DNA of 64,000 nt, from contig NMRA01000132.1 in NCBI GenBank assembly GCA_002633005.1, positions 740,585-804,584 on the forward strand. The letters are read 5' to 3'. Below are positions 4,621-33,401 of this stretch, piece by piece (within the stretch, counting starts at the first letter, position 1; each line of letters starts with the position of its first letter). The position numbers were made by a program, and so were the translations under genes. This DNA comes from Phoronis australis. Lineage: Eukaryota > Animalia > Phoronida. Under the pieces are notes generated by a model that saw only the letters and a program-made list of their open reading frames with translations, was not told where the DNA came from and searched no databases.

Positions 4621-4868
4621 GGCCCGTTCCAAGAAAACTGACTTAGCTAAGACAAACCTTAAATTTCAGTCAATTTTAAGATAAAAGTAAAATTTGTCTC
4701 AAGTTCGTTTTAAGGAAAAGATCTTAAGTTTGACTTAAAATTTTTTGACTTAAGTTTTGTTTTGGTTTTGAGTATCTCTCCGGATGAGAAAGTTTCAAAA
4801 TTTGGAAGTTGAGACAAATCTTAAACTTACGTCAACAATGAACTTAAGTCAGTTTCTTGGAACGGGCC
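4621..4868. mobile_element. MITE (non-autonomous DNA transposon) with ~25-bp TIRs
   Basis: Left end GGCCCGTTCCAAGAAAACTGACTTAG; right end CTTAAGTCAGTTTCTTGGAACGGGCC. CAAGA lies on both flanks. A degenerate relative occurs at ~42634-42787. Confidence 0.8.
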
Positions 4869-5037
4869 CAAGAGCTGTAATTCACAAGACCCACACTTAT
4901 GATTAAGATACGACGTTACTGGGAAACGCCCGTGTTATTAGAACCCGTATGTAAACGTTGAGTTGTCTCTTATTTATTTCAAAGACGTTGTGTTTCATGC
5001 ATTGTACTGACTGGTGCTGAAGGCCATAGCTGCAAAA

Positions 5038-5101
5038 ATGTTGATGAAGTGCTTCTTATTCAGTTTCGTGTTGGTAGCTTGTGTTTGCTTTGCGGAGTGT
5101 G
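5038..5101 (+). CDS. Signal-peptide exon of the microexon gene
   Basis: AAAAATG start context. Basic n-region (K), hydrophobic core FLFSFVLVACVCF, small residues A-x-C at -3/-1. Ends G|GTAAGG in phase 1, which matches the phase of the microexons. Confidence 0.85.
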
Positions 5102-8100
5102 GTAAGGGGTTATTTTCTATTTCTGCCTTTAAGGTACAAGGGCCTACCACATGTTAGAGTTGGCTTACGTGGTAAATGGATTGTTTTCGTTGCATCTCGT
5201 AAAGGTGGGGGAAGGGCAACCACAGTATATGTCCGCGTAAGCCCTATGCTGCTTTGTTGTAGTTACTTTGCGAAATGAATTGTTATCGAGTATGTTGCTA
5301 TGTTCTGACGTTTGTTCGTTTGCCGTTTATATATTCGTTAGTACCCAAGCTACCCACCACGTGTATTGTCTGATGGACATAAAATTAACATAACAGGCAT
5401 CTCATTAATGTATCAAAAAGCCTGTAGTTTTTGTGGAAATCGGCCTCAAAATTGGGCTGTATGGGCCAATTTTCAATTTTTCACTTGTGGTTCTCTGAGG
5501 GATTCCTTTGAGGGACTCTGAAATTTAATAGGCCTATATGTAAAAGAGGCAGCGCGATTAAAAGGAATCGTCGGGGACTTTCACGATGTAATTCTTTCTT
5601 GGTGGTTTTTCCACTTAATTTAATTCGTTTATAAGTTATACACCCAACACAATGCTTATTTATTGAATTAAATTTGAAAAATATATTCAAAGTTACTGAT
5701 AACAATACACCTAGAAACGGACCTTTTGCAGTCAAGAGCGTTCTTTGGTAGCAAATCTGGCGTCGACTCAAATCAGCACGTCCGAAATACGCCCATGTTA
5801 TGAGACCGATCCAATATAAACCAACCAGCCAAATTAGAACTTCTACGTACTTGAATTAATATTCTGCCACCACTCCAACAATAAAACCCAAAATTTTAAT
5901 TCCCCACCCAACATAATGTCATCAAGATCACACATCCGATTTGCCATCCCCAGTCTTATTTTGATAGTTTTAAAAAACTACAACTACAGATGTTAAAGCA
6001 AAATATTGAATGACAATTACTCAAAGTACGTAATGGTAGTAGCGCTAGTTCTACAGCGAGTTCAAAGTTGAATTCATTGTAACGATTTTCAACCGATATA
6101 TTGAGTTGTTAATTATTTGCGACGACTTCAAATTCATTGTAATGTGTTCTCAACTCTTGATTGGGATCTGGAAAGCATTATAATAACGTTATAATTGAAT
6201 TCGAAAAAAATTTCAATTCTGTACTTTCTTGATATGGTGACATTTGTCTTTCAGCAACAATTGCCTCACGATTCAGTAACGGTGAGTAGCTTGCACATGT
6301 TGGCATCTCGTAGACAAAAATGATTGCTTTGATACAGCGTTGATCCCTATCTAACACCTTCATGGGTTTTAACTAAGATTCGCCTGAAGTGCGCCTCCCG
6401 TTTTGTTCGTTTTTACCGCATATTTGATCTATCGGCATTCGAAGAAATATATAGAAATTGTCAGTGTTCGCTAGTGGTTCTAGTAGAGGCAGTTGGTAGT
6501 TGAAGCAGAATATTTCATTAAAATATTTCACTTTTTTCTGACAATAGTAGCTATAGTATGAAACTTAGTAGGAGCTGCTGAGCCAATAACTCAAATTTGA
6601 GGTCCTATGAACATCTGACCCATAATAGTCGGTACAGTTACTTCAAATTTGCTAAATTGATCCGCGAACTCGTTGCAATGAGATGTGAATTCCTTACTTT
6701 GATTTGTCAATTCATAACATTCAATTTAACATTAGCATTGTAAACTGATTATTACGATTTAAAACTCTTTATGAGCTGTTCTCATTTTAGTGAGTTTGAA
6801 ATTGTTATAAAGTTATAACTTGAGTGAACGGCAGCGTTGGCTTTTGTATTATAGTAGTATATGCTTTGTTTGCTTCGAAGTATAAAAATTATGAATTTAG
6901 TTATTTCCCATAAGATGGCATTTAAATTTCTGTTTCAGCAACGTTTGCCAAACGCCTGAGTAACGGTAAGTCTTTTGTTAGGTTTATCGTAAGTTGGCAG
7001 ATGATAGATTAAGCTTTATTGAGCTCTGACAACGCTTATAAGTTTTGATAATTAATATCCCCTTTCGGATTGACAACCGCTCTCGTGAATGCGACGTCGT
7101 CTTCCTAATAAATATCTGTTTGCATAATTTTATTAAAATCCGTTCAAGAACTCGGAAGATACATCAGTAGATAACCGTGAGAAAATTCGCTCATGCCGTC
7201 CCATCCATGAAAGGAACATATCTGTAAAAATTTCATGAACATACATGAAGGGGTTTTAGAAATACACTGGAAGGCGGTGGACGCCGGACACCGGAAGGAA
7301 GGACGGACGGGAATTGACGGACAGACAGACGGACGGACGGGCGGACGGACGGACGGACGGACGGACGGACAGAGATAACGGCATAATGCGGCCACAAATT
7401 AACATATGGGCTTATAACAATGAGTTGTGAACTCTTTATACTGACTTAGAAGTCATTGGAATCAGTTCATATCAGATCTCGCAGCACTGTTGGGCAGATT
7501 CACATCCGTATTCAAAACTATAATGCTGCATTTGATGTTAAAAACCTGACGATCGCCGCATTTGATGTGAAATGTATATTGTTAATTCAGTCCTTTCATC
7601 ATGGTCCCATTTGGATTTCAGTAACAATTGCCAAAATATTCTCTAACGGTAAGTTTGTCATCAGATAGCCAAACATCGTTGCCTTGTTACAACGATGACC
7701 TCTGTCAAACGCCTCCATTCTTGTTTATTAATACCCGCCCTTGGTGTACCTGCCGTTTTCGTCGCGTTTACCGCATGCCCTATCTATGGCCCACCAACGC
7801 GGTTTCCAAGAAAAAAATTAAAAAGTGTTCGTGGTTGCTGGTGGCTCTAGCGAAAGTAATTGACAATTGAAGCAAAATATTTCATAAGGAATATTTCACT
7901 TTACTCTAATAACACTACGGAAACTTTAGTAGGATCAGCTGTGCCATGAACTCAAATTTAAAGTCATCTTAATAACTTCTGACACATAACGACAAGTTGC
8001 ATAGTCGGTATATTTGCTTCCATCTGACACTACTGCGAACTAGTTGTAATGAGTTGAATATTCATAACATGGAGTTGTCAATTCATTATATGAAGCTTAA

Positions 8101-11100
8101 GACGTGAAATGTGAGCGGATTATTATGACACAGAAACTCGATATAACAAGTTCTCATTATCGTGAGTTGGAAGTCATTATAAATAATTCTAATTTTAAGT
8201 TAAGGGCAGAGCTCACGTCACTACCTTCCTTAATATAGCGTTGATGGTCTGTCTTATTGGAAGTAAGAACTTCCCAATTCATTATTTTTCCATAACTTTT
8301 ATGTTTCAGCAACGATTGCTAAACGACTGAGTAACGGTAAGTCTTTTGCTTGGCTTATGACAGATTGCCAGCTGACAGGTTTGATACGAAGTTGACCTCT
8401 GGCAACGCTTATTCGTTCTAATTTATTTCTCCTTTCGCGTCAATGACTGCTCTCGTTTCTTTCTACTGCAGTAATTAAAACAGAATATACAATAACTATG
8501 ACTCCGACAATTGCGAGAAGATTCACAAACGGTAACTTGTTTGCAAAGTTTGGCATGTGATAGCCAAAACTTGTTGCCTTGTTTCAGCGTTGACCTTTGT
8601 CCAACGCCTCCATGTTTGTTGATTTTTATCTTATCGAAATACCTCCCCTTTAGTGTGTATGGCGTTTTCGTCGTTTTTATCGCATCTTCCACCCCTGGTT
8701 AAACAATGTGATTTCCAAGGAATAACTTAAAAGTGAAAATGTTTGCTGGTGGTCCTAGAGGAGAAATTGGTAGCACAATATTTCGTCACTTAACAACATC
8801 TAACAAATAATAACGAGTTGCGCATTCTGCTTCAATACAGTGAGATGCAAACTCGCTGTAATGAGTTGTGAATTCATAAAATTTAGTTGTCAATTAATTA
8901 AACTGAATTTAACACTTAAAATGTAAACGGATTATTATGGCTTGAAACTCGATATCAGAAGTAAGAACTCTTCAATTCATTCTTTTTCAATAAGACCGCA
9001 ATTAAATCTATATCTTAACAACTTTTGCTAAACGACTGAGTAACGATAAGCCTTTTGCATGACTTGGCAGCTGATACGTTTGATACAATGTTGACCTCTG
9101 GCAACGCTAGTTCGTTTTAATAATTAATATCTGCTTTCGGATTAACGACAACTTTCTTTTGTTTTTACCACAGTAAGTAAAGCAAAATATTCAATAACAA
9201 TAAGTCCGACTAAGGGTTCATTAGTTGCAAAATTTACTGCACGTTGAAGTTTGAAGTTTTTGGAACGATTTAAAACTGATAAATTGAGCTTCAAAGCATA
9301 ACCATGAGTTGAAAAATGTTTACGAAGACTTCATATTCATTGTACTGACTTCTCAACTCTTATACTAAGTTGGAAGCCTTTATAATAACTTAAAAACTGG
9401 TATCATATTTGGAGCACATCCACTTCCGTACTGGGACTACAATGCTGCAATTGATGAGAAGTGAAATTTTTCAATTCAGTTCTTTCCTGATACGGTTGCA
9501 TTTGTGTTTCAGCAACTATTGCCAGAAGATTCACCAACGGTAAGTTGTTTGCACAATTTGTGGCATGTGATAGCCAAAAAGTGTTGCCTTGTTTCAGCGT
9601 TGACCTTTGTGCAACGCCTCCATGTTTGTTGATTAATGCCGCCCTTTAGTGTGTATGGCGTTTTTGTTGTTTTTATAGCATCGTCCACCCCTGCTTAAAC
9701 AATGTGATTTTCAAGGAATAACTTAAAAGTGACAATGTTTGCTGGCGGTCCTAAGGGAGGAATTGGTAGCACAATATTTCGTCACTTAACAGCATCTGAC
9801 AATAAATAACGAGTTGTGTTCTCGGCTTCTAAACAGTGAGAATCGAACTCGTTGTAATGAGTTGTGAATTCATAACATTTAGTTGTCAATTCATTACACT
9901 GAATTTAACACGTGAAATGTGAACCGATTATTATGACTTGAAACTCGATATGAGGAGTTCTAATTGTGCTGAGATGGTAATACTTGTAGACAATTACAAT
10001 TTTGAGTTAATGGCAGAGTTGACGCCATTACACGTCCTCATTATAGCATTGATACTCCGTTTTCTTCGAAGTAAAAACTTCTCAATTCATTCCTTTCCAA
10101 TAAGATGGTATCTAAATTTTTGTTTCATCAACTTTTGCGAAACGATTGAGTAATGGTAAGTCTTTTGCTTGGCTTATAATAAGTTAGCAGCTGATAGAAC
10201 ATAAATAGCTTTGCTGCGATGTTGACTTCTGTCAATGCTAATAATTAATATCTCCTTTCATGTTAACGACCGCTGTAGTTTGCTTTTACGGCTCTAATTA
10301 AAGCAGAATATTCAATAACAATAACTCCCACGAAGGAATCGTAGTATTGAAAACTTTATTGAAAGTTCAGATTTGAAGGTTTCGGAATGATTTAAAACGC
10401 ATTGATTGAGTTTGAAAGCCTCATAATGAGTTGCCAATTATATTGGATGACTTTAAATCCACTGTACTAAGTTTTCAACTCTTTAAACTGAGTTGGAAGT
10501 AGTTATGTTAAGTTAGTATTTGAATTAACAGTTTTTTGGAGCACGAACACTTCAGTATTCGAACGATAATGCTTCATTTGATATGAAATAAAATTTGCCA
10601 ATTCAGTCATTTCCTGATATGGTTGCATTTGTGTTTCAGCAACAATTGCCAAAAGATTCACTAACGGTAAATTGTTTGGACACTTTGGCCTCCGATAGCC
10701 AAAAACTGTTGCGTTAATTGTTACAATGTTCACACCTGTCTAGCGCCTCCATGCTTGTCAATTATGACCCGCCTGTAGTGTGTCTCCCGTTTTCGTCGTT
10801 TTCTACCACATGCTCTATCTATGGTCAACCAACGTGATTTCCAATGAATAACTGAAAAGTGCCAGTGGTGGTTCTAGAGGAAGTAATTGGTAGTTGAAGC
10901 AGAATATTTCATAAAAAATCTCACTTAACTCTAATAACAGTAGTTATAATACGGCAAATTTAGTAGGACTAGCTGTGCCAAAAACTCAATATTTGAAGCC
11001 ATTTTAACGACTTCTGACACATATTGAAGAGTTGTCGGCATATTTGTTTCAAACTGGTACTACAGCGAGCAGCGAACACGATGTAATAAGTTGTGAATTC

Positions 11101-14100
11101 AAAACATTGGAGTTTTAATTAATTGCTTTGAATTTAACACGTGAAATGTGAACGGATTATTATGACCTGGAACTCGATATAAGAAGTAAGAACTCCTCAA
11201 TTCATTCTTTTTCAATAAGACCGCATTTAAATCTATATCTTAGCAACTTTTGCTAAACGACTGAGTAACGATAAGCCTTTTGCATGACTTGGCAGCTGAT
11301 ACGTTTCATACGATGTTGACCTCTGGCAACGCTAGTTCGTTTTGATAATTAATATCTCCTTTCGGATTAACGACAACTTTCTTTTGTTTTTACTACAGTA
11401 AGTAAAGCAAAATATTCAATAACAATAAGTCCGACTAAGGGTTCATTAGTTGCAAAATTTACTGCAAGTTGAAGTTTGAAGTTTTTGGAACGATTTAAAA
11501 CTGATAAATTGAGATTCAAAGCATAACCATGAGTTGAAAAATGTTTACGAAGACTTCAGATTCATTGTACTGACTTCTCAACTCTTATACTAAGTTGGGA
11601 GCCTTTATAATAACTTTAAAACTAGAATCATATTTGGAGCAGATTCACTTCCTTATTAAAATTACAATGCTGCATTTGATGTGAAGTGAAATTTTTCAAT
11701 TCACTTCTTTCCTGATATGGTTGCATTTGTGTTTCAGCAACTATTGCCAGAAGATTCACCAACGGTAAGTTGTTTGCACAATTTGGCATGTGATAGCCAA
11801 AAAGTGTTGCCTTGTTTCAGCGTTGACCTTTGTGCAATGCCTCCGTGTTTGTTGATTAAGGCCCCCCTTTAGTGTGTCTGGCGTTTTTGTTGTTTTTATC
11901 GCATCCTCCACCCCTGCTTAAACAATGTGATTTTCAAGGAATAACTTAAAAATGACAATGTTTGCTGGCGGTCCTAGAGGAGGAATTGGTAGCACAATAT
12001 TTCGTCACTCAAAGGCATCTGACAATAAATAACGAGTTGCGTTCTCGGCTTCTAAACAGTGAGATGCGAACTCGTTGTAATGAGTTGTGAATTCATAACA
12101 TTTAGTTGTCAATTCATTACACTGAATTTAACACGTGAAAAGTGAACCGATTATTATGACTTGAAAATCGATATGAGGAGTTCTAATTGTGCTGAGATGG
12201 TAATACTTGTAGAGAATTACAATTTTAAGTTAATGACAGAGTTGACGCCATTCCACGTCCTCATTATAGCATTGATTCTCCGTTTTCTTCGAAGTAAAAA
12301 CTTCTCAATTCATTCCTTTCCAATAAGATGGTAACTAAATTTTTGTTTCAGCAACTTTTGCGAAACGATTGAGTAATTGTAAGACTTTTGCTTGGCTTAT
12401 TATATGTTAGCAGCTGATAGAAAATAAATAGCTTTGATGCGATGTTGACTTCTGGCAATGCTAACAATTAATATCTCCTTTCGGGTTAACGATCGCTGTA
12501 GTTTGCTTTTACGGCTATAATTAAAGCAGAATATTCAATAACAATAACTCCGACGAAGGAATCGTAGTATTGAAAACTTTATTGAAAGTTCAGATTTGAA
12601 GGTTTCGGAACGATTTAAAACGCATTGATTGAGTTTGAAAGCGTCATAATGAGTTGCCAATTATATTGGATGACTTTAAATCCACTGTACTAAGTTTTCA
12701 ACTCTTAAAACTGAGTTGGAAGTAATTATGTTAAGTTAGTAATTGAATTAACAATTTCTTGGAGCACGCGCACTTCAGTATTCGAACGACAATGCTTCAT
12801 TTGATGTGAAATAAAATTTGCCAATTCAGTCATTTCATGATATGGTTGCATTTGTGTTTCAGCAACAATTGCCAAAATATTCACTAACGGTAAGTTGTTT
12901 GGACACTTTGGCCTCCGATAGCCAAAAACGGTTGCGTTAATTGTTATAATGTTCACCCCTGTCTAGCGAGTCCACGTTTGTTAATTAAGACCCGCCTGTA
13001 GTGTGTCTCCCGTTTTCGTCGTTTTTACCACATGCTCTATCTATGGTCAACCAACGTGATTTCCAATGAAAAACTGAAAAGTGCCAGTGGTGGTTCTAGA
13101 GGAAGTAGTTGGTAGTTGAAGCAGAATATTTTATAAAAATATCGCACTTTACTGTAATAACAGTAGTTATAGTACGGCAAATATGGCAGGACTAGCTGTG
13201 CCAAAAACACAAATTTTGAAGTCATTTTAACGACTTCTGGCACACAATGAAGAGTTGTCGGCATATTTGTTTCAAACTGGCACTACAGCGAGCTGCAAAC
13301 ACGATGTAATGAATTGCGAATTCAAAACATTGGAGTTTTAATTAATTGCTTTGAGTATAACACGTGAAATGTCAACGGATTGTTATGACCTGGAACTCGA
13401 TATCAGAAGTAAGAACTCCTCAATTCATGCTTTTTCAATAATATCGCAATTAAACTTATATTTCAGCAACGTTTGCTAAACGACTGAGTAACAGTAAGCC
13501 TTTTGCATGACTTGACAGCTGATAAGTTTGATACGATGTTGACCTCTGGCAACGCTTATTCCTTTTAAGAATTAATATCTCCTTTCGGATTATGGACCAC
13601 TTTCTGTTTTTTTTTACTGCAGTAATTAAAGCAAAATATTTAATAACAATAAGTCCGACTAGGGAATCAATGAATTCAAAAAATTACTGCACGTTGAATT
13701 TTGAAGTTTTTGGAACGATTTGAAACTTATTCATTGAGCTTCAAAGCATAATCATGAGTTGCCAAATGTTTACAAAGACTTCATATTCATTGTACTGACT
13801 TCTCAACTCTTACACTAAGTTGGAAGCCTTTATAATAACTTTAAAACTAGAATCATATTTGGAGCCCATGCACTTCCGTATTGGAACTACAATGCAGCAT
13901 TTGATGTGAAGTGAATTTTTTCAATTCAGTTCTTTCCTGATATGGCTGCATTTGTGTTTCAGCAACTATTGCCAGAAGATTCACCAACGGTAAGTTCTTT
14001 GCACAATTTGGCATGTGATAGCCAGATAGTGTTGCCGGATTTCAGCGTTGACCTTTATGCAACGCCTCCGTGTATGTTGAGTAATGCCGCCCTTTATTGT

Positions 14101-17100
14101 GTCTGGCGTTTTTGTTGTTTTTATCGCATCCTCCACCCCTGCTTAAACAATGTGATTTTCAAGGAATAACATAAAAGTGACAATGTTTGCTGGCGGTCCT
14201 AGAGGAGGAATTGGTAGCACAATATTTCGTCGCTTAGTCACTTACGGCATCTGACAATAAATAACGAGTTGCGTTCTCGGCTTCTAAACAGTGAGAATCG
14301 AACTCGTTGTAATGAGTTGTGAATTCATTACATTTAGTTGTCAATCCATTACACTGAATTTAACACGTGAAATGTGAACCGATTATTATGACTTGAAAAT
14401 CGATACGAGGAGATCTAATTGTGCTGAGATGGTAATACTTGCAGAGAATTACAATTTTGAGTTAATGGCAGAGTTGACGCCTTTACACGTCCTCATCATA
14501 GCATTGATTCTCCGTTTTCTTCGAAGTAAAAACTTCTCAATTCATTCCTTTCCAATAAGATGGTATCTAAATTTTTGTTTCAGCAACTTTTGCGAAACGA
14601 TTGAGTAATGGTAAGTCTTTTGCTTGGCTTATAATAAGTTAGCAGCTGATAGAAAATAAATAGCTTTGCTGCGATGTTGACTTCTGGCAATGTTAACAAT
14701 TAATATCTCCTTTCGGGTTAACGACCGCTGTAGTTTGCTTTTACGGCTATAATTAAAGCAGAATATTCAATAACAATAACTCCGACGAAGGAATCGTAGT
14801 ATTGAAAACTTTATTGAAAGTTCAGATTTGAAGGTTTCGGAACGATTTAAAACGCATTGATTGAGTTTGAAAGCGTCATAATGAGTTGCCAATTATATTG
14901 GATGACTTTAAATCCACTGTACTAAGTTTTCAACTCTTAAAACTGAGTTGGAAGTAATTATGTTAAGTTAGTAATTGAATTAACAATTTCTTGGAGCACG
15001 CGCACTTCAGTATTCGAACGACAATGCTTCATTTGATGTGAAATAAAATTTGCCAATTCAGTCATTTCATGATATGGTTGCATTTGTGTTTCAGCAACAA
15101 TTGCCAAAATATTCACTAACGGTAAGTTGTTTGGACACTTTGGCCTCCGATAGCCAAAAACTGTTGCGTTAATTGTTACAATGTTCACCCCTGTCTAGCG
15201 CGTCCACGTTTGTTAATTAAGACCCGCCTGTAGTGTGTCTCCCGTTTTCGTCGTTTTTACCACATGCTCTATCTATGGTCAACCAACGTGATTTCCAATG
15301 AAAAACTGAAAAGTGCCAGTGGTGGTTCTAGAGGAAGTAGTTGGTAGTTGAAGCAGAGTATTTCATAAAAATATCGCACTTTACTCTAATAACAGTAGTT
15401 ATAGTACGGCAAATATGGTAGGACTAGCTGTGCCAAAAACTCAAATTTTGAAGTCATTTTAACGACTTCTGACACACAATGAAGAGTTGTCGGCATATTT
15501 GTTTCAAACTGGCACTACAGCGAGCTGCAAACACGATGTAATGAATTGCGAATTCAAAACATTGGAGTTTTAATTAATTGCTTTGAGTATAACACGTGAA
15601 ATGTCAACGGATTGTTATGACCTGGAACTCGATATCAGAAGTAAGAACTCCTCAATTCATTCTTTTTCAATAATATCGCAATTAAACTTATATTTCAGCA
15701 ACGTTTGCTAAACGACTGAGTAACAGTAAGCCTTTTGCATGACTTGGCAGCTGATAAGTTTGATACGATGTTGACCTCTGGCAACGCTTATTCCTTTTAA
15801 GAATTAATATCTCCTTTCGGATTATGGACCACTTTCTGTTTTTTTTACTGCAGTAATTAAAGCAAAATATTTAATAACAATAAGTCCGACTAGGGAATCA
15901 ATGAATTCAAAAAATTACTGCACGTTGAATTTTGAAGTTTTTGGAACGATTTCAAACTTATTCATTGAGTTTCAAAGCATAATCATGAGTTGCCAATTGT
16001 TTACAAAGACTTCATGTTCATTGTCCTGACTTCTCAACTATTACACTAAGTTGGAAGCCTTTATAATAACTTTAAAACTAGAATCATATTTGGAACCCAT
16101 GCACTTCCGTATTGGAACTACAATGCTGCATTTGATGGGAAGTGAATTTTTTCAATTCAGTTCTTTCCTGATATGGCTGTATTTGTGTTTCAGCAACTAT
16201 TGCCAGAAGATTCACCAACGGTAAGTTCTTTGCACAATTTGGCATGTGATAGCCAGATAGTGTTGCCTTGTTTCAGCGTTGACCTTTATGCAACGCCTCC
16301 GTGTATGTTGAGTAATGCCGCCCTTTAGTGTGTCTGGCGTTTTTGTTGTTTTGATCGCATCCTCCACCCCTGCTTAAACAATGTGATTTTCAAGGAATAA
16401 CATAAAAGTGACAATGTTTGCTGGCGGTCCTAGAGGAGGAATTGGTAGCACAATATTTCGTCGCTTAGTCACTTAACGGCATCTGACAATAAATAACGAG
16501 TTGCGTTCTCGGCTTCTAAACAGTGAGAATCGAACTCGTTGTAATGAGTTGTGAATTCATTACATTTAGTTGTCAATCCATTACACTGAATTTAACAAGT
16601 GAAATGTGAACCGATTATTATGACTTGAAAATCGATACGAGGAGTTCTAATTGTGCTGAGATGGTAATACTTGTAGAGAATAACAATTTTGAGTTAATGG
16701 CAGAGTTGACGCCATTAAACGTCCTCATTATAGCAATGATTCTCCGTTTTCTTCGAAGTAAAAACTTCTCAATTCATTCCTTTCCAATAAGATGGTATCT
16801 AAATTTTTGTTTCAGCAACTTTTGCGAAACGACTGGGTAATGGTAAGTCTTTTGCATGGCTTATAATAAGTTAGCAGCTGATCGAAAATAAATAGCTTTG
16901 CTGCGATGTTGACTTCTGGCAATGTTAACAATTAATATCTCCTTTCGGGTTAACCACCGCTGTAGGTTGCTTTTACTGCTATAATTAAAGCAGAATATTC
17001 AATAACAATAACTCCGACGAAGAAATCGTAGAATTGAAAAGTTTACTGAAAGTTCAGATTTGAAGGTTTCGGTACGATTTATAACGCATAGATTGAGTTT

Positions 17101-20100
17101 CAAAGCGTCCTAATGAGTTGTCAATTATATTCTATGAATTTAAATCCACTGTATTAAGTTTTCAACTCTTTACACTGAATTGGAAGTAATCATGTTAAGT
17201 TTATAATTGAAATCGCAGTATATTTGGAGCACGTTTACTTCCGCATTGGAACTATCGTTCTGCATTTGATATGAAATAAAATTTGCCAATTCAGTCTTTT
17301 CCTGATATGATTGCATTTGTATTTCAGGAACAATTGCCAAAAGATTCAGTAACGGTAATTTGTTTGGACACTTTGGCATCCAATAACCAAAAACTGTCGT
17401 GTCGTTACAATGTTTACCTCTAGCGAATGGCTCCATGCTTGTTAATTAAGACCCGCCTGTAGTATGTCTCCCGTTTTCGTCGTTTTTACCACATGCTCCA
17501 TCTATGGTCAACCAACGTGACTTCCAATGAATAACTAAAAAGGGCCAGTGGTTGTTCTAGCGGAAGTATTTGGTGTTTGAAGCAGAATATTTTATAAAAA
17601 ATATCTCACTTACTTTAATAACAGTAGTTATAGTACGGAAACTTTAGTAGGACCAGCTGTGCCAAAAACTCAAACTTTGAAGTCATTTCAACGATTTCTG
17701 ACACATAATGAAGAGTTGCATAGTCGTTGTATTTGTTTCAAACTGGCACTACAGCGAGCTGCGAACTCGATGTAATGAGTTGGGAATTCAAAACATTGGA
17801 GTTTTCAATTAATTGTTTTGAATTTAACACGTGAAATGTGAACGGTTTATTATGACTTGTAACTCGATACTAGGAGTTCTAATTATACTGAGATGGGAAT
17901 CCTTGTAGAGAATTATGAATTTGAGTTAACCGCAGAGTTGAGGCCACTACGCGTCCTCATTATAGCGTTGATTCTCCATTTTCTTCGAAATAAGAACTTT
18001 TCAACTCATTCCTTTCCCATAAGATCGTAAATAAATTTCTGTTTCAGCAACGTTGGCCAAACGACTAAGTAACGGTAAGTCTTTTGCTTTGTTTGCAATA
18101 AGTTAGCAGCTGATAGAATGTAGATAGCTGTGATACGATGTTGACTTCTGGCAATGCTAATAATTAATATCTCCTTTCGGGTTAACGACCACTCTCGTTT
18201 GGTTTTACGGCAGCAATTTAAAGCAGAATATTCAATAACAATTTCTGCGACGAAGAAATCGTAGAATGGAAAACTTTACAGCAACTTCAAGTTTAAAGTT
18301 TTTGGAACGATCTGAAACTTATAGATTGAATTTCGAAGCAGTATAATGACTTTAAAATTATATGCAATGACTTCAAACCCATTGTACGAAGTTCTCAACA
18401 CTTTACACTGAGCTGGAAATAATTATGTTCAGTTAATAATTGAATTCCCAGTTTATTTGGAGCACGCGCACTTCAGTATTCGAACGATAATATTTCATTT
18501 GATGTGAAAAAAATCTGCCAATTCATTCTTTTCCTGATATGGTTGCATTTGTGTTTCAGCAACAATTGCCAAAAGATTCAGTAACGGTAAGTTGCTTGGA
18601 CTGTTTGTCCTCCGATAGCCAAAAATTGTTGCGTTAATTGTTACAATGTTCACCTCTTTCTAGCGCCTCCATGCTTGTTCATTAAACCCGCCTGTAGTGT
18701 GTCTCCCGTTTTCGTCGTTTTTACCACATGCTCTATATATAGTAAACCAACGTAATTTCCAATGAATAACTAAAACTGCCAGTGGTGGTTCTAGAGGAAG
18801 TAATTGGTAGTTGAAGCAGAATATTTCATAAAAATATCTCACTTTACTCTAATAACAGGAACTTTAGTAGGACCAGCTGTGCCAAGTACTCAAACTTTGA
18901 AGTCATTTCAACGATTTCTGACACACAGTGAAGAGTTGCAGTCGGTGTATTTGTTTCAAACTGGCACTATAATGAGCCGCAAACGTGATGTAATGAGTTG
19001 TGAATTCAAAACATTGGAGTCTTTAATTCATTAAAATGAATTTAACATGTGAAATGTGAACGGACTTGAAACTCGATATCAGGAGTTCTCACTATCGTCA
19101 ATTGGAAGTCACCATAAATTATTCTAATTTTGAGTTAAGGGCAGAGTTGACACCACTGCCTTCCTTAGTTGATGGTCTGTTTTCTTCGAAGTAAGAACTT
19201 CTCAATTCATTCGTTTTCCATAAGATCGCACTTTTGAAATTTATGTTTCAGCAACGTTTGCTAAACGACTGAGCAACGGTAAGCCTTTTGCTTGACTTAT
19301 GTTAGATTGGCAGCCAATAGGTTTGATACGATGCTGACCTGTGGCAACGCTCATTCGATTTGATAATTGATATCTACTTTCTGTTTAATTACCGCTTTCG
19401 TTTGTTTTTACTGCAGCAATTAAAGCAGATTATTCAGTAAGTAACTCTACTGCAAGTTCAAACTTGAAGTTTTCTGAATAATTTGAAACTTATATATTGA
19501 GCTTCAAAGCAATGTAATGAGTTGCCAATTGTTAACGAAGAGTTCATACCCATTGTACTGTGTTCTCAACTCTTTATGCTAAGTTGGAAGACCTTATAAA
19601 AAGTTTAAAGTTGAATTCGCGGCATATTTGAAGCTTGCACACTTCCGTATTCGAACCATAACAGTGCATTTGATGTAAAATAAAGTTTGTCAAGTCTTTC
19701 CTGATATGGTTGCTTTTATGTTTCAGCAACAATTGCCAAAAGATTCATTAACGGTAAGTTGTGTGCACACTTTCGCATCTGATAGCCAAAATCTTTGCCT
19801 TGCTGGAACGTTGAGCTCTATCTAACACCTCCATGTTTGTTCATTGATTCCTACCTCACGCGTGTCTGGGATTTTCATCGTTTTTAGCGCATGCTCTATG
19901 GTCAACCAGCGTGATTTCCAAGGTCATAACTAAAACTTTTCACTTTCCTCTGGTGATTCTTGTGGAAATATGTAGTTGAAGCAGAATATTTCGTCATTTA
20001 ACAGCTACTGATAGATAATAACAAGCCGCATAATCGGTATATTTTTTTCAAAATCGCTACAGTGAGCTGCAAACTCGTTGTAATCAGCTTTGAATTCATC

Positions 20101-23100
20101 ACATTGAGTTGTCAATTAATTACATTGAATTGAACACGAGATTACTGTAAACGAATTGTTATGACGTGAAAACTCGATCTGAGGAAGCGTGTTTTAAATC
20201 ATGTGCAGATTTGTAATTTTGAGTTAACGGCAAAGTTGACGCCACTACGCATCCGTAATATGGCGTTGATGCTTTGTTTTCTTCAAAGTAAAAACTTCTC
20301 AATTCATTCCATTTCCATAAGTTCGCAATTAAATTTGATTAACGGTAAGTCTTTTGCTTGGCTTATGACAGATTGGCAGCTGATAGGTTTGATACGATGT
20401 TGACCTCTGGCAACGCTTATTCGTTTTGATAATTGATATCTTCTTTCGGGTTAATGACCCCTCTAGACTGTCTTTGCCGCGGTAATTAAAGGAGAATATT
20501 CAAAAACACTAATTACAACTGTGGAATCGTAGAATTGCAAACTCTACTCCTAGTTCAAATTTGAATTTTTTTTGGAACAAATTGATGCTCGAAAATTGAG
20601 TTTCAAAGTATTATAATGAGTTGCCAATTGTTAACAAAGACTTCATATTCATTGTTCTAAGGTCTCACTCTCAGCTCTTTATACCGAGTTGGAAATCACT
20701 GTAATAAGATGAAAATTAAATTCGCAGCACATTTGAATCACTTGCACTTCCGTATACGAACCACAATCCAGTTCTTTCCTGATATGGTTGCATTTGTGTT
20801 TCAGGAACAATTGCCAAAAGATTCACTAACGGTAAGTTATTTGCACAATTTGGCACCTGATAGCCAAAAATGGTTGCCTCTTACAGCGTTGACCTCTGTC
20901 TAACGCCTCCATGTTTGTTAATCCACATCCGGCTGTAGCGTGTCTGCCGTTTCTGTTGTTTTTTTACAGCATGCTCTACCTGTGGCCAACCAAAGTGATT
21001 GCAAAAAAAATAATCAAAAAGTTCAGTGTTCGAATGTGGTTCTAGCCGAAGTAGTTGAACCAGAATAGTTAAGAACTTTATATTTCAGCACCAATTGCCA
21101 AAAGATTCACTAAGGGTAATTTTCTAACACACTGTGAAATCTGATAGCCAAAAATTGTTGTTTTTTCAAGACGTTAAACTCTGTATAACGCCTTCAAGCT
21201 TGTAGGAGTGTTAAGACCACGCTTTCATTCTGTGACACTTTATTGAATCTAAGTCGCTTGTGCCCTGACATACAGAAAGCAATTACAACTCTTTCTGCAA
21301 CATATGTCAATGGTCATCCTGTCGCTTGCACTCAAGCAATGATTCTTCGAATGGGCAATGTGTCAAAGTCGTGGACCAAGTAGGTCAACCGACTTGGTCG
21401 GGTGACTAATTGGTCTACGACATCAACATACAGAAATGAACAGTACATCACATGGATACTCAGGCTGGATGGGCCATAGAAGTTACTCAACAGAAAACAA
21501 AGCAAGTTGACATATCTGAAATCTTTTGTTGTGCTAACGTAAAAGTAAATCCAAAATGAACAGTTATTCAATATAAAGAGACAACTTAGTCAACTAAGAG
21601 ATAACAAGACCAATTTGAAAACCATGTCATTCCTGGCATCAACACAGGGTCCGAGTGATTTTTTGAGCGATGACAGGCAGACCAATAGACCAAAACAAAC
21701 CCAAACAAATGGACAATTATGACGCAATTACAAGATATTGTAGTACTGCACAATTTTGATGAAAATGCAGAAGAATCTGGCCTATATAGATGACTTTGTG
21801 TCCGAATAACCGAGGAACTTATTTTTACGCTTGAATAATCTGATTAATTTGTTCACGTTTCATATAGAGTGGAGTATTCTTTTTCTTCAACAACAAGATT
21901 TTTAAATGTCGCCTGTAAATTATTATTTTTTTGCTCTCATTCATAAGGTGATGAAGTGTTTAGTGTTGGAATTTTGACATTTCCTTTGAAATTCTATTTA
22001 GTCCGTTCAGTTAATGTTATTAGTGAAATGAACATTTTCCCATAGCCAAATTGTTTTCATTGATAGAAAGCTCTTTAGAAACTTCAGAGTTCAGCTTTTT
22101 TCAGAGTAATGTTGCTTTGCAGATTTTACGTGTGTTCTCTGCAACAATCTAAAATAAAAGAGTAGGAAACAACCACATGACCACCTGGGATTGCCACTTT
22201 TAAGGCCAGGGGATACCTTGATTTGCTGTTATAAGAATCAAACAAAAGTACGATTTTATAGTTGATCAAGACTTAGTGAGAGAGGATATAATTCTTTGGG
22301 AGTTTGCCACCATTTCTTGTCATTATAGCGTGGACCTCATTTTGCGTTACTGATCCTCTTCTCTGTGTGATAAAATCTCCTTGAGAAAGAATTAAGTTTC
22401 ACGTACCGGTAGGCAAAGTGTTGTTTACAGCTATATTTGCTTTTTGTTGTCTTCAATCCATTAACCACAGAAAATAAATCAAATACATTGGGTGATTTAG
22501 AACAGACACTAACAAAACACAAATGAATTACCAAGTAGTGATTGCACACTCAGTTGTTAAGTAAACTTAATTGAAGAGCATTTATTTATAGGTACCTTGG
22601 GTACATGCTTAGCTACTTTCTCTTCTCTTAATGGCGGAGCTTTAATGTGTTGGAGGGGTATTTTGGTGCTGTCTTGGGACTTAAGTTCCCTTATCTAGTT
22701 CTCTTGATTTTATCTCTGCTGTCACATGGGGTTCTAAGAACTGAAGCAATACACAATTACGGCCATATAAATGACTCAACTGTGTATCTGACTGTAAATG
22801 TTGTTGACCAAGCATATGTGGAACGTTTGACTGAACATGTATAGCCAAAACATAGTCTGAGATCGAACACAATGATGATGGTTTCAACAAAACGCCCTTA
22901 ATTGTCAAATGGATTAAGAGGTTGCACTCTGCCATGACAAAAGAATAGTTTAATAAAATTGTGACATCAGCGTATTTCTAAACCGCAAGGTCACCTTGGT
23001 TAGCTTCAGTCTCCTTTTGGGATGCATATAAAGTGAACAGTAAGCTTGTCCAGAGTGTTTCTTTTAATATTTGTACGAAAATGGAGAATAAGTTCACTTT

Positions 23101-26100
23101 GGTTAAATTCAATGTAGTGACCAGTTTTAGTTTACACATTCAAATGAAAAACTACAAATAATGAATAAACGAGATTGCTTATTTAGGTTAATAATGTCTA
23201 AGGTTCTCTTGACAACAGTTGCCAACTTTATTAAAGTCTGCCATTATCTTGTGTCTTGTTCTACTCACAGGTGTTCATTTAAATGGATGACACCAGTGAC
23301 GTCTGCATAACCAAATTACACAAGTACATATAATTGCGCAACTGAAATAGTTCTCAATACATGATATAGCTGTAGAGTTATTATATCCACTATTACGAAA
23401 ATATCATGACGTTCTCGAAAGTGCATGAATGAAACTGAAAGCTTGTATTAAATCACCAAAGTCTGTAAAGAAAATCACAACAAGTTTTGTATTCATATAC
23501 CACCTTCACATCAACGTATTATTTTGTAAAATAATAAATATTGGATGTAGAAAAAATCGGTGTCATCTCATACACTGTTTTTTGTGTTGTTTTTGTATAG
23601 TTTAACGAAAAGTCTTCAATTATTTTATGAAAATTCATTTATAGCGTGCACAGAATACTAGGCTGGGTGTTAAGTTCCAATGGTTACTATTACTAATAGT
23701 AGTGATAATGAGGGTGTCGGTAAGTTGACACTTTCTAAGTTATAAACATATTAGCTGTCCGAGATCTGTACTGCTGAAGTTAGAGACCAAGCGAGTTTTC
23801 TCATGACTAAAAAGCGTCCGCGTATGCAAGTGGTTCTAATCGATATAACACGAAGTTGAAGCAGAATATTTCATCAAAGTAACTCACTTTACTCTAGTAG
23901 TTATAGCACGGAAATACAGTGGGACCAGCCTTGCCAGGAACGCAAATTTGAAGTCATTACAAAAACTTCCGACGCATTGTAATTCCTGTGAACTAATTCC
24001 AGTGAGTTACAAACTAATTGTAATGAGACGTCAATTCAGTACATGGAATTTGAAACTCACAATGCATTGTGAACTGTTTATAATGACTTGAAATTCATTC
24101 AGTGTATTTAGTAGTAAATCATTACAAGTGCGATTTGATTTGCAGTTTAAGTGAACGTCAGAGTTGGCTCCGCTACGTTCCCGTATTTGAGCCCTGGTGC
24201 TCTGTTTGCTTCGAAGTATAATGGTTCTCAATTAGGTCCTTTTGCTAAAAGATCTCAATTAAATTTCTGTTTCAGCAACCTTTGCTAAACGACTGAGTAA
24301 CGGTAAGTCTTTTTGTTTGGCAGCTGACAGAAAAAAAAAAACTAGTTTTAAAACGACGTTGGTATCTTCCAGAGCTTATATCTTTTGATAATTAATATTC
24401 CACTTCTGATTAACGAGCCCTTTGTTTATTTGTACCGCATTAATTAAAGCAGAATATTCATTCAGCAATAATTCAAGAGTACGATCAAAGTAGCACCAAG
24501 TCTGCTGCGGGTCGATTTTCAACTCGTCGAGTTTCAAAGCATTATAGTGAGTTTCCAATTATTTACAATGTATGTAAATTCAATCTAATGAGTTGTCAAT
24601 TCTTTATACTGATTTAGAAGTCATTATAATAATTTTATATTTGAGCTCGCACCAAAGTTGGAGCAGGTAAATCTCGTATTAGATCTATAAAATGCGCTTG
24701 ATGTGATTGCTTTCCTGATATGGTCGCATTTGTGTTTCAGCAACAATTGCGAAAAGATTCCCTAACCGTAAGTTGTTTGCACGTCTGATAGCCAAAATGG
24801 TTTGCTTTGCTACAACGTTGACCTCTGTCTAACCCCCGTTGTTTGTTTATAATACCCGTCTTTAGTGTGTCTGCCGTTTTCGTCGTTTTTACCACAAGCT
24901 CTATCTATGGTCAACCAACACGGTTTCCAAGGAGTAATTAATCGTTACATTGAGTTTAAAAATTCACAATGCATGCTGAAACTCATTATGTTGAGTTAGA
25001 AGTTGTTATGAAGAGTTCCAATTTGAGTGAACGGCAGAGTTAGCTCCGCTACGCCTCCGTATTAGAACACTTATGCTCTATTTGCTTCGAAGCATAACAA
25101 TTATCAACTGAGTTCTTTCTCATAAGAACGCTTTTAAATTTCTGTTTCAGCAACGATTTCCCTACGACTGGCTAACGGTAGGTCTTGGTTTATGGTTAAT
25201 TGGCGGCTGATGGAAAAAGGTAGCTGTGATACGATATTGTCCAACAGCAACGCTGATACGTTTTGATAATTCATTATAATGAGTCGTCAAATTTTTATAC
25301 TGAGTTAGAAGTCATTATAGGTATTTAATATTTAAACTCGCAGCAATGTTAGAGCACGTAACTTCCATGATAGAACCTTAATACTGCATTTGATCTGAAA
25401 TGAAATTAGTCAATTCTTTACTTTCCTGATGTGGTCACACTTGTGTTCCAGCAACAATTGCCAAACGATTCAGTAATGGTAAGTTTTTACACACTTTGGC
25501 ATCTGATAACCAAAAACATGGCAGTATATTGAGTTGGAAATCATCACAAAGAGTTCCAATCTGAGTGAACGGCAGATTTGGCTCCGCTGCGTTTCCATAT
25601 TTGAGCTCTGATGCTCTGTTTGCTTCGAAGTATAATGGTTCTCAAGTAGGTCCTTTGCTATAAGATCTCAATTAAATTTCTGTTTCAGCAACCTTTACTA
25701 AACGACTGAGTAATGGTAAGTGTTTTTGCTTGGCTTACGATAAATTGGCAGATGACAGAAAAAAGCTATCTTTGATATGACGTTGACCTCTTCCAAAGCT
25801 TTTGATATTAATATTCAAACTCAGATTAACGAGCCCTTTTGTTTGTTTGTAATGTGTTTCACGTGTAATGTGCTTCACGTGTAATGTGCTTCACGTGTAA
25901 TGTGCTTCACGTGTAATGCGCTTCACGTGTAATGTGCTTCACGTTACCGCATCTTTTATCTATCAGCAACCAATGTGGTTTCCACTGAATTATTAAAAAA
26001 TGGTCAGTTTTGGTAGTGGTTCTGGCCGAAGGATTTCGTAGTTGAAGCTTTCAGTAAATAATTAATCAAAATAACTCACTTTACTGTAACAAGAGTAGTT

Positions 26101-27559
26101 ATAGTGCGGAAACTTTAGTAGGACCCGCTGTGCTATGAACTCAAATTTGAAATCATGTTAACAATTTCTGACACATTATAACGAGTTGCATAGTCGGTCT
26201 AATTTTTTCAAACTCCCTACAATGATCTGCGAACTCGTAATAAGTTTTCAATTGACATCATTGAGCAGATTAATATGACTTGAAACTTATTACGATGTGT
26301 TGTCATATTGTACTTAGTTGGAATGTATTATAAAGACTACCAGAGCAGAGCTGGTAGCACTACATTTTAATCCTTTCCCTTGAGATCGCATTTAAATTTC
26401 TGTTTCAGCAACAGTTACCAAACGGTAAATCTTTTGCTTGGTTATGATAAGTTGGCAGCTGATAGAAAAAAGAGATCTTTGATACTGTTGTCCTCTGGCA
26501 AGCGCTTACAGTATAAGTTTTGATAATGAATATCCACTTTCCGGTTAACGACCGCTCTCGTTTGTTTTACAATAATTTTAAGTAGAATATTCAATTACAA
26601 GAAATCAAAATACGGAATCCTAGTAGCACCAACCCCACTGCGAATCCAAATTTGAAATAATTTTAACGATTTCCAACTCATAGATTGAGTTTCAAAGCAT
26701 TATAATGCGTTTCCAATTATCTATAATGACTTGAAACTCCTGAAGTCATTATATTAACGAGTTCGCAGTAGAGTTGGAGCATGTTACATATTTGAAATGT
26801 AGAGCGCTAATGGTGTGTTTGCAGTAAATTAAAGTTCTCAATTCATTTATTTCCTCATGTAATCGGAACCAGTTTTACTTTTTCAGCGACTGTTGCCTTG
26901 ACGACTGAGTAACGGTAAGTCTTTTACATGCTTCACATTGGAAGTTAATTGACACGAAGTGTTGATCCGCATCTAAAGCATCCAAGTCGTGGTAAAGTTG
27001 CATTTTGCTTTGTTTAGCTTTCTAATTTCAAAGTCGGTGTCGAACAATGGTGTACCAGGTTTAACCGTTCCTCAGTTTTCTTCGCCTTTTCACTAATTTT
27101 TGGCAACCTTCCTAATATTCCACCTCTACCAAGAACAATTTTCGTACCTCCTACAATTTTCATTTTCGCTCATCGTCTGAAATATTACCCAGGAGTACGT
27201 GCCACCCATTGCCCCCAAAGGCACCTCTCGATGCTTTGCTACAGCAGGCAAAACCTTTCAAAAATATCATCCTTAGGCACATTTTTAACAAGCCGACCAG
27301 TCTTCAACAGCGGCGGGTAATTTTTCTCAGGTTAAATTTTTTTTGCACGTAAAAGTTAGACCCCACGGGGTCAAAATTAAATGATATACGGGGTTGAATA
27401 CGTTCAACTTAGATTAAAAATCACTTGTGGTGTTTAGTAAATAAATATCTATCTGTTTCAGATCTACCATACAGAACACACAAGCAGAAGCCCGACGATA
27501 TGGCATTTACAAATACAAGTAGTTCAGAAAAAGAAGGAATTAAAGCATTTCAGTTGTAA
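5038..27559 (+). CDS. Novel secreted repeat polyprotein encoded by a 27-nt microexon array (candidate glycopeptide/prohormone precursor), ~300 aa
   Basis: Exon 1 is 5038-5101 (MLMKCFLFSFVLVACVCFAEC, phase-1 donor GTAAGG). Intact 27-nt exons start at 6255, 6939, 7622, 8310, 9513, 10640, 11738, 12352, 12863, 13467, 13963, 14584, 15095, 15699, 16194, 16816, 17328, 18048, 18560, 19252, 19727, 20805, 21089, 24276, 24741, 25151, 25452 and 25689. Translation: ATIASRFSN ATFAKRLSN VTIAKIFSN ATIAKRLSN ATIARRFTN ATIAKRFTN ATIARRFTN ATFAKRLSN STIAKIFTN ATFAKRLSN TTIARRFTN ATFAKRLSN ATIAKIFTN ATFAKRLSN TTIARRFTN ATFAKRLGN GTIAKRFSN ATLAKRLSN ATIAKRFSN ATFAKRLSN ATIAKRFIN GTIAKRFTN APIAKRFTK ATFAKRLSN ATIAKRFPN PTISLRLAN ATIAKRFSN ATFTKRLSN. 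Putative last exon from 27462; the 3' end is uncertain. Confidence 0.85.
7095..7420. repeat. Insertion containing a (GGAC)n microsatellite within an intron of the array
   Basis: GGAC/GACA run at ~7300-7370, embedded in sequence absent from the other monomers. Boundaries approximate. Confidence 0.65.
21201..23820 (-). mobile_element. ~2.6 kb foreign insertion interrupting the array; decayed coding remnant with a BRCT-like segment
   Basis: Array homology stops near 21203 and resumes near 23830. The minus-strand frame at ~22440-22126 reads NLILSQGDF..TQNEVHAIMTRNGGK..SH*VLI..LKVAIPGGHVVVSYSFILDCC, with stops. Element class not identified. Confidence 0.5.
25849..25944. repeat. 16-bp minisatellite GTAATGTGCTTCACGT x6
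   Basis: Six directly visible tandem copies. Confidence 0.95.
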
Positions 27560-33032: not shown

Positions 33033-33401
33033 CTCAGTGATTGCGGACTTTTTCAGTATCAACACTGTCTCTCACTAGCTAGTACACGTCCGATCCTTGA
33101 TAGTAAATGTTTTGCCGGTTTATCGTCTTTTTACCATCGCTTTTACTGTTGTGTGATCACGTGCCTCTCTTGTATTACGTAGCGATATACTGCGGGGTCT
33201 TGCGTTTTCGCCAGGTTCCCACGTCTTCGGTACACACGCCTATCGTGGCGTCGACATGTGCAGCCACATTCAGGCCACACGAGGGCGCTGAAAAAAGAAC
33301 GTTGGGTTGTTATTGCGAGACTAATAACTATAAGCCACTGAACCCGTAGTGGTATTTTCATTATTGGCGCTTCCGCAGTGGGCTTCTAGCCGACCTGATC
33401 A

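Follow-up and report, generated by a model that had tools for sequence, protein, structure and literature searches.

A satellite-like array of 27-nt microexons in Phoronis australis is a spliced, expressed gene with a predicted signal peptide and candidate N-glycosylation sites at its exon joints

Can 21 kb of DNA that looks like a satellite be a gene, and if so, what would it make? Contig NMRA01000132.1 of Phoronis australis (assembly GCA_002633005.1) raises this question, and we analysed a stretch of 64,000 nucleotides of it (the window). A fuzzy scan detected 32 exon-like units of 27 nt, all on the forward strand, like every exon described here, and within 6255-25715. Both the AG acceptor and the GT donor are intact in 28 of the 32; the four splice-defective units have lost AG (at 8505, 9019 and 10129) or GT (at 9019 and 11244). 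The 21.3-kb array contains the pattern TTYCAG-N27-GTRA 27 times, against two occurrences in the remaining 42.7 kb of the window, and a motif count with 23-26, 29 or 30 nt between the same acceptor and donor returned no matches. Across the 28 intact units, phase 1 contains no internal stop, compared with 11 in phase 0 (in 10 of the 12 L-type units and in unit 7622) and 24 in phase 2. The monomers consist of exon plus intron, F-type alternating with L-type, with intact units spaced mostly 475-720 nt apart. Identity is about 70-75% between ordinary monomers and 89-94% in a younger four-unit repeat of about 2.23 kb; the 21-kb array was not reported by TRF, where the longest period was 500. The array probably expanded as exon and intron were duplicated together in tandem, at first as an F/L pair and later as a four-unit block. 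All this agrees with a preliminary description of the locus, which had claimed AG, exactly 27 nt and GT in nearly every monomer, phase 1 as the only open phase, an intron amplified together with its exon and a phase-1 signal-peptide exon about 1.15 kb upstream (ATG at 5038 and donor after 5101, 1,153 nt before unit 1). The neighbour of the microexon gene is an SLC22-like gene, for which no match at E<=1e-5 turned up among 35 candidates and the Atlas gave only clusters of mixed eukaryotes.

RNA evidence came from assembled contigs (X1; their RNA status is presumed, and the contigs are spliced) and from three raw RNA runs (X2, X3 and X4), representing two studies. Three of the four runs, from both studies, show stranded GT..AG joints that connect the signal-peptide exon with unit 1 and unit with unit and that lead into the terminal exon; the fourth run, X4, is nearly silent at this gene. 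Exon 1 (5015-5101) comprises the 5' UTR, with RNA 5' ends at 5015-5017, and a 21-codon predicted signal peptide that starts at ATG 5038 (a second ATG lies at 5044) and runs into a phase-1 donor, GTAAGG. Upstream of it, X1 has 27 letters that do not align. Its GT..AG joint to unit 1, 5101→6255, was covered by 49 reads (27 starts) in X2 and 65 reads (33 starts) in X3, with a contig depth of 137 in X1. Among the 15 joints listed in the body of the array, 11 are GT..AG and all 15 fall at exon borders, with every read first mate minus. The terminal joint, 26914→27462, was found in 104 reads of X2, 90 of X3 and none of X4, and at a depth of 387 in X1; reads over the 3' region differ strongly among the runs of one study (494, 416 and 9). 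The preliminary description had let the case for a gene hang on spliced reads joining exon 1 to unit 1 or unit to unit; such GT..AG joints are present in RNA, and the message extends to the 27462 exon. The 21 kb of satellite-like DNA is a spliced, expressed gene, and its expression is sample-specific.

The dominant message omits several units with intact-looking splice sites. Unit 1 (6255-6281; F-type, TIASRFSN, with a single basic residue) is joined in RNA to exon 1 and to the L-type unit TIAKRLSN at 8310-8336; this dominant joint, 6281→8310, bypasses an L-type unit (6939-6965) and an F-type unit in which KI replaces KR (7622-7648), both with AG and GT intact. The joint 8336→9513 then passes over two broken units, one without acceptor AG (8505-8531) and one with acceptor and donor gone (9019-9045), to reach the F-type unit TIARRFTN (9513-9539), which by sequence comparison is identical to the F-type units at 11738-11764, 13963-13989 and 16194-16220. 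Further broken units lie at 10129-10155 (no acceptor AG in this assembly) and 11244-11270 (no donor GT), and between them is an intact F-type unit, TIAKRFTN (10640-10666), to which none of the joints listed can be cleanly assigned. Joints lead into and out of the L-type unit TFAKRLSN (12352-12378), where mapping is common to near-identical copies. The F-type sequence TIAKIFTN, which has no dibasic site, occurs in two identical units (12863-12889 and 15095-15121). The second of these is reached from the L-type unit at 14584-14610 (14610→15095; 147 reads in X2, 125 in X3 and 3 in X4) and left by a joint placed at 15121→16194, which bypasses the intact L-type unit at 15699-15725 or one of its type; the identical unit at 13467-13493, also L-type and intact, is touched by none of the joints listed.

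Further along, L-type units at 16816-16842, 18048-18074 and 19252-19278 alternate with F-type units at 17328-17354, 18560-18586 and 19727-19753, connected by the joints 16842→17328, 17354→18048, 18586→19252 and 19278→19727. Only the exon end and donor survive of a deleted unit at 20325-20352. The F-type unit at 20805-20831 provides the letters immediately before 24276 in X1, X2 and X3 RNA, and reads joining the two bypass a diverged F-type unit, PIAKRFTK (21089-21115), from which Thr and Asn are gone. From the L-type unit at 24276-24302, alternative joints inside one run lead to 24741 (80 reads) or 25151 (7 reads), a split in which only matched DNA would separate haplotypes. The F-type unit TIAKRFPN (24741-24767) is in the X2 and X3 message and bypassed in X1; it is joined (24767→25151) to a diverged L-type unit, TISLRLAN, with a single basic residue (25151-25177), and this in turn (25177→25689) to the last 27-nt unit, TFTKRLSN (25689-25715), which is found in an X1 contig. 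Between these two, an intact F-type unit at 25452-25478 has weak support for its own use, and most reads placed there derive from other units (252 of 263 X2 reads differ at 25466). X2 and X3 RNA also include end-of-array units missing from the window, with which an allele and a paralog are both compatible. Long-skip and go-back joints (e.g. 9539→12352) were left out of the skipping counts; their placement is ambiguous because the exons are identical. Unit skipping or haplotype variation is present in the message, so that the proposed product, a signal peptide followed by 28 spliced units, stands as regards the splicing of exon 1 and units seen in RNA, but the dominant message uses fewer than 28.

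The message does not end as first proposed either. In RNA, the last 27-nt unit is joined (25715→26887) to a penultimate exon of 28 nt (26887-26914), which is in use in three samples from two studies. Its extra base shifts the frame to a TAA at 26910-26912, 2 bases before the last junction, and the terminal exon (27462-27582) is therefore 3' UTR from 27462 to about 27580, with ATTAAA at 27539-27544 and RNA 3' ends at 27574-27582. The protein terminates at this TAA rather than at 27559, where the coding end had been placed. A coding C-terminus at 27462-27559 was rejected: RNA inserts the 28-nt exon, and the direct joint 25715→27462 is absent among the 15 of 19 joints listed. In some X2 reads the 28-nt exon follows a shortened unit of 16 nt with AG and GT (26409-26424), whose use would yield an alternative C-terminus. 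By an established rule, a stop close upstream of the last junction should escape nonsense-mediated decay.

At nearly every joint, the terminal Asn of one exon and the initial Thr of the next form an N-x-T sequon. Purifying selection acts on the coding frame, in which pooled pN/pS is 0.29 (range 0.17-0.39); the other two frames give 0.92 and 2.40. Over the 28 intact units, Thr is conserved in 27, Asn in 27, Arg in 25 and the Lys or Arg before it in 26, and the adjacent dibasic pair (K/R-R) is retained in 23 and missing from 5. On a tree made from the flanking introns only, the Thr codon changed five times and the Asn codon three times, always without amino-acid change, while the residue between Asn and Thr varies (A, G, S, T, V or P). 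The splice consensus favours A at donor position -2, where the Asn codon places C or T; given this opposition, splicing alone is insufficient to explain the Asn. The KR site is less conserved than the sequon, since five of the 28 units have no dibasic pair and such units are spliced in (the 147 reads of 14610→15095; unit 1).

The product of exon 1 has a basic n-region and a hydrophobic core (its KD hydropathy over 11 aa reaches 2.9), and the chain is likely secreted via this predicted signal peptide. A model including all units predicts a polyprotein with 25 sequons and 23 KR/RR sites, whose mature chain begins directly with the repeat and contains neither Cys nor Trp; Pro occupies 2 of 224 fully exon-encoded positions. 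The KR site is located in the middle of the exon, so that every predicted peptide draws on two exons; the commonest pieces between dibasic sites are LSNATIA (four copies) and FTNATFA (three). No dibasic site in the model is preceded by Gly, and the predicted peptides would therefore not be amidated, unlike many neuropeptides. An amphipathic antimicrobial helix was considered and rejected, the helical hydrophobic moment being only 0.11 at 100 degrees.

We give an even chance to the reading that this chain is a precursor which is N-glycosylated and from which a convertase releases 7-residue glycopeptides of the F/L-S/T-N*-A-T-I/F-A type. The predicted signal peptide would bring the chain into the ER, oligosaccharyltransferase would glycosylate the splice-built sequons, a protease of the prohormone-convertase type would cleave after KR or RR, and carboxypeptidase E would then trim the basic pair. 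Convertase cleavage followed by carboxypeptidase E trimming is textbook secretory-pathway processing. Because all exons are phase 1-1, with Asn and Thr at their edges and the dibasic pair inside, skipping or copy-number change would spare sequon and cut site; all that would change is how many peptides are made, and in what mix. Glycans spaced nine residues apart could keep a convertase from cutting. N-glycosylated secreted peptides exist: a lobster glyconeuropeptide survey reports a SIFamide glycoform (10.1101/2025.06.26.661634). N-linked forms are the exception there, and the glycopeptide reading, if true, would place an N-glycan on nearly every released peptide. More tentatively, the gene may represent a new family of secreted signalling N-glycopeptides, in which splicing creates each glycosylation site and joins two half-exons into each mature peptide, skipping and copy number set dose and mix, and such genes are systematically hidden as satellite DNA.

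The chain might instead remain uncut, as a basic (pI about 12), densely N-glycosylated secreted polymer with a structural, mucous, adhesive or egg-coat role and a length set by exon skipping. The better conservation of each sequon residue (27 of 28 units) than of the dibasic pair would fit such a polymer, as would the expression of KI, SR and LR units, a hyosophorin- or mucin-like density of one sequon per nine residues, and a product with neither acidic spacers nor amidation glycines. We nevertheless consider it doubtful, given that an adjacent K/R-R pair stays in one and the same place in 23 units on both sides of the old F/L split, as is usual for convertase sites, and that junctions are covered by only about 50-150 reads per 11-13 million records, a modest depth for a structural material made in bulk, though dilution by other tissues may contribute. 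It also seems unlikely that the precursor is cut into plain, non-glycosylated peptides (neuropeptides, pheromones or defence peptides) with N-x-T as part of the active sequence. A signal peptide followed by numerous similar peptides, with KR sites separating them, is how proneuropeptides are usually laid out, as described in a phoronid, brachiopod and nemertean survey (PMC8557429), but six of our motifs are absent from one supplement file of that survey. The strong expression difference among runs of one study would suit such peptides; however, they would be uncharged after KR trimming, unlike cationic antimicrobials, and their middle residue varies while N and T stay, as in a sequon. Moreover, the ER normally glycosylates N-A-T when it lies in an unfolded chain. 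A transcribed decaying repeat or non-coding RNA that keeps its splice sites and makes no useful protein would account for the four broken units, the deleted, 16-nt and frameshifted 28-nt units and the skipping of intact ones, but it is very improbable in view of the stop-free spliced frame of 28 units, the pN/pS range, the clean bypassing of broken units, a stop 2 nt before the last junction that should avoid nonsense-mediated decay, and a 28-nt exon common to three samples from two studies.

We searched for relatives with a protein profile built from 20 stretches of the window. Among 1.84 billion representative proteins it gave four matches at E<=0.001, all of which were rejected: the best, a Nematostella predicted protein, is compositional (its 15-residue repeat is a different one, and a signal peptide is not evident), and the other three aligned mainly to the intron-derived flank of the profile. 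Of 833 candidates 75-2000 aa long, none matched at E<=1, and of three short candidates none matched at E<=10. As controls, the profile recovered the spliced product (E 8e-24) and six units (E 3e-5), and of 20 simulated relatives at each level it recovered 9 at 20% divergence, 3 at 33%, 2 at 45% and none at 55%; with this low recovery, diverged relatives may escape it. Two degenerate exon-plus-splice-site patterns had no matches in metagenome contigs, and Pfam had none for exon 1 or for the earlier-proposed terminal frame. Rfam had none over 4000-28500, so the introns host no known small RNA. Six peptide motifs and the gene concept were not found in the open-access literature searched. By these sequence comparisons, whose reach is limited, the peptide family appears to have no relative in the databases searched.

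RNA thus reveals a gene, under purifying selection, in a 21-kb repeat nearly devoid of open reading frames. Invertebrate annotations may therefore miss similar secreted-peptide genes, and a scan of long-period tandem repeats for AG-N(3k)-GT could reveal more of them. If the glycopeptide reading is true, the gene would show in a clear-cut way how a splice junction can generate a site of post-translational modification, and glycopeptidomics could test that reading directly through the predicted 7-mers.

In Xenopus FIM-B.1, repeat cassettes are distributed among repeated exons, and cassette splicing varies the length. The PTS region of chicken MUC2 (PMC3549977) also has glycoprotein repeat cassettes over repeated exons, defeating annotation. 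Unlike these two, in which O-glycosylated Pro/Thr/Ser repeats lie inside large domain proteins, N-x-T/KR units make up the whole of the present chain. It resembles the multi-copy proneuropeptides of spiralians (PMC8557429) in placing short peptides that are alike, and separated by dibasic sites, after a predicted signal peptide. It differs in having neither an amidation glycine (common, not obligatory) nor acidic spacers, in the sequon that nearly every peptide carries and in having one microexon per unit. Schistosome MEGs combine a signal peptide with many very short multiple-of-three exons and alternative splicing, and are hard for automatic annotation; they have 10-20 exons, mostly of 15 nt, and a post-signal hydrophobic/aromatic motif ending in Trp-polar-basic (PMC10526429). 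The present gene likewise has most of its coding sequence in very short multiple-of-three exons (28 of 27 nt, phase 1-1, spliced in RNA), but lacks the hydrophobic/aromatic Trp motif, and every exon copies one 9-residue unit with its intron co-amplified and with dibasic sites and sequons. Hyosophorins, or polysialoglycoproteins, are fish-egg cortical-alveolus proteins, cut at fertilisation, whose tandem short units each carry a glycan (N-linked in flounder and medaka) and are proteolysed into glycopeptides (PMC3528131 and PMC12753239); 80-90% of a hyosophorin is carbohydrate. The short tandem repeats with a predicted glycosylation site (25 sequons in 28 near-identical units) recall them in product type, with no sequence relationship seen; the present units are basic, with KR sites and one microexon each. 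In the honey bee apidaecin gene, a conserved N-terminus precedes tandem exons of one repeat unit each, exon number and sequence vary by haplotype, and splice variation has been proposed to tune output (PMC1847501). There, a single exon codes for one whole 28-aa unit of a proline-rich antimicrobial peptide, with 4-11 per haplotype; the present gene shares the N-terminal part followed by tandem one-unit exons, but has about 28 exons of 27 nt, and each of its predicted peptides combines two half-exons, carries a sequon and lacks a proline-rich motif. The gene layout has precedents in apidaecin and in schistosome MEGs; the MEG parallel drawn in the preliminary description holds for layout and not beyond it, and apidaecin in layout and hyosophorin in product type come closer.

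The hidden gene proposed in the preliminary description is real and is verified by RNA. Motif scanning of the two strands, exact and fuzzy, gave 32 exon-like units of 27 nt from 6255 to 25715, all on the + strand. Both the AG and the GT are intact in 28, while the units starting at 8505, 9019, 10129 and 11244 are broken, so the tandem array of about 28 microexons is present as claimed. The pattern TTYCAG-N27-GTRA occurs 27 times inside the array versus twice in the other 42.7 kb of the window. None of the 28 intact units has an internal stop in phase 1, versus 11 in phase 0 and 24 in phase 2, in agreement with the proposal that only phase 1 is open. Every unit is part of an exon-plus-intron monomer. 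By self-BLAST, ordinary monomers are about 70–75% identical to each other, and copies of a larger block, which spans four units and about 2.23 kb, are 89–94% identical. A tree from the flanking introns alone (30 units; 8505 and 21089 have no homologous flanks and were excluded) gave two clades, F and L, named for the residue after K/R-R, which alternate along the array. Besides the 27-nt units there are the remnant of a deleted unit near 20340, a 16-nt unit (26409–26424) and a 28-nt unit (26887–26914). Thirteen units, including 6939, 8310 and 24276, have an internal GTAA after base 21, a potential cryptic donor that could yield frame-keeping 21-nt exons; none of the joints listed uses it. The array is interrupted at 21180–23830 by about 2.65 kb unrelated to it. 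This segment occurs only once in the window, is matched on both strands by divergent RNA reads and is probably a dispersed repeat.

Expression was assessed in a contig set (X1, presumed to be RNA) and in X2, X3 and X4, raw runs of stranded RNA that share its species label; about 18–19% of each raw run was covered. The joint 5101->6255, from exon 1 to unit 1 (6255–6281), has a depth of 137 in X1, 49 reads with 27 starts in X2 and 65 reads with 33 starts in X3, and was not found in X4. Fifteen of the 72 joints in 4400–24390 were listed, all at exon borders and 11 of them GT..AG; their first mates map to the minus strand, so the RNA comes from the + strand. Further joints, with X2/X3 reads, are 6281->8310 (48/66), 8336->9513 (31/29), 14610->15095 (147/125), 15121->16194 (112/90), 16842->17328 (56/32), 17354->18048 (15/2), 18586->19252 (77/53) and 19278->19727 (70/63). 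Splicing of exon 1 to unit 1 and of unit to unit, which the preliminary description had named as the check on the gene, is thus present in RNA. X4, at similar read depth, gave 9 reads in 24200–28250 versus 494 in X2 and 416 in X3, and 2–5 reads on each of six internal joints; this near-silence indicates that expression depends on tissue or stage.

The 3′ end required correction. In 24200–28250 (15 of 19 joints listed), joint 26914->27462 has 104, 90 and 0 reads in X2, X3 and X4, and a single X1 contig covers 25689–25715, 26887–26914 and 27462–27582 gap-free. The 28-nt exon changes the frame and places a TAA stop at 26910–26912, 2 bases 5′ of the last junction. Coding had been taken to end in an exon at 27462–27559, but the exon from 27462 is 3′ UTR; it contains ATTAAA at 27539, and the RNA terminates at 27574–27582. 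At the other end, RNA in X2 and X3 ends at 5015–5017, and the alignment of an X1 contig starts at 5022, leaving 27 letters upstream of it unaligned, possibly an upstream exon, a leader or an allele difference.

Although 28 units are intact, not all are ordinarily used. Dominant joints bypass the 13467/15699 type as well as 6939, 7622 and 21089; in X1, 24741 and 25452 are bypassed too. With several units bypassed in this way, the usual product probably comes closer to 23 units (about 236 aa) than to the proposed 28 (281 aa); minor forms could be found among the 57 further joints of 4400–24390. Near 25452–25715, X2 and X3 reads contain, besides the window's version, end-of-array units absent from the window, which differ from the window's own units at 3–6 of every 27 nt. 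Most simply, these probably come from a second haplotype whose repeat content differs. The bypassed units may reflect exon skipping or haplotype difference. In some X2 reads, the 16-nt unit precedes the 28-nt exon, an arrangement that would yield a second short C-terminus.

The 21 residues encoded by exon 1 (5015–5101) start basic and include a hydrophobic core; we read them as a signal peptide. Each unit encodes x-T-(I/F)-A-(K/R)-R-(F/L)-(S/T)-N, the codon for x being split by the junction; Thr and Asn are each conserved in 27 of the 28 units and the dibasic pair in 23. The all-unit model has 25 N-x-S/T sequons, a pI of about 12, one acidic residue, a mature chain without Cys, no Gly ahead of a dibasic site and no amphipathic helix. 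All sequons span splice junctions and all cut sites are exon-internal. Cutting at KR/RR would release mainly 7-mers (LSNATIA and FTNATFA, for example), and units with KI or LR would leave some 16-mers. Judging from the standard secretory pathway, we see an even chance that the chain would enter the ER, be N-glycosylated at its sequons, be cleaved by convertase and trimmed, and be released as small uncharged glycopeptides. An uncut basic glycopolymer is possible but less probable; in its favour, KR is less well conserved than the residues of the sequon, and units without KR are expressed. It is unlikely that the products are signalling or defence peptides free of glycans.

Purifying selection acts on the coding frame. 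Comparing 30 units in all pairs, which are not independent, gives a pN/pS of 0.29 in this frame versus values of 0.92 and 2.40 in the two others; by class, it is 0.39 for F-F, 0.17 for L-L and 0.31 for F-L. Within types, exons are 85–87% identical, whereas flanking introns are 72–77% identical. On the intron tree, exons show 51 changes over 27 sites (1.9 per site) versus 3.3 in each ungapped column of the introns. Amino-acid changes number 18, against 45 at the nucleotide level, with 76% of sites nonsynonymous (binomial p 2e-7, which exaggerates the significance, multi-base changes being counted once), and the Thr codon changed five times and the Asn codon three times, silently every time. Set beside these values, a decaying non-coding repeat is a very improbable reading of the locus.

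The gene is flanked by a broken LINE-type reverse transcriptase (960–2810) and an LTR-type integrase ORF (30782–32482). Downstream, on the + strand, lie exons of an SLC22-like MFS transporter (MFS/sugar-transporter; 33399–39839), and together these neighbours fit an animal genome. A short distance upstream of exon 1, at 4615–4875, is a 260-nt MITE-like element with terminal inverted repeats, also found in many other transcripts.

Two word-seeded profile searches, with a profile built from 20 window stretches, found no relatives of the product; against 1.84 billion representatives, there were four unrelated-looking matches. In a control, the profile detected the product itself and missed most simulated relatives beyond 20–30% divergence. 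Two DNA patterns had no matches in metagenome contigs, nor were there matches in Rfam, and no description of this peptide or of a junction-built sequon array was found in open-licence PMC/bioRxiv texts. The peptide family is apparently undescribed.

The gene belongs to a kind already known, the multi-unit precursor on tandem microexons, here with predicted secretion. Its layout works like that of apidaecin, whose tandem exons hold one unit each and differ between haplotypes (PMC1847501), and like that of schistosome micro-exon genes (MEGs; PMC10526429), but it lacks defining features of both. The predicted product works like hyosophorin, a polyprotein of tandem glycopeptides that undergoes proteolysis (PMC3528131 and PMC12753239), or alternatively like a multi-copy proneuropeptide (PMC8557429). 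We assign the gene to none of these four groups, the likeness to hyosophorin concerning the predicted product only; its unusual property is that each sequon is built by splicing.
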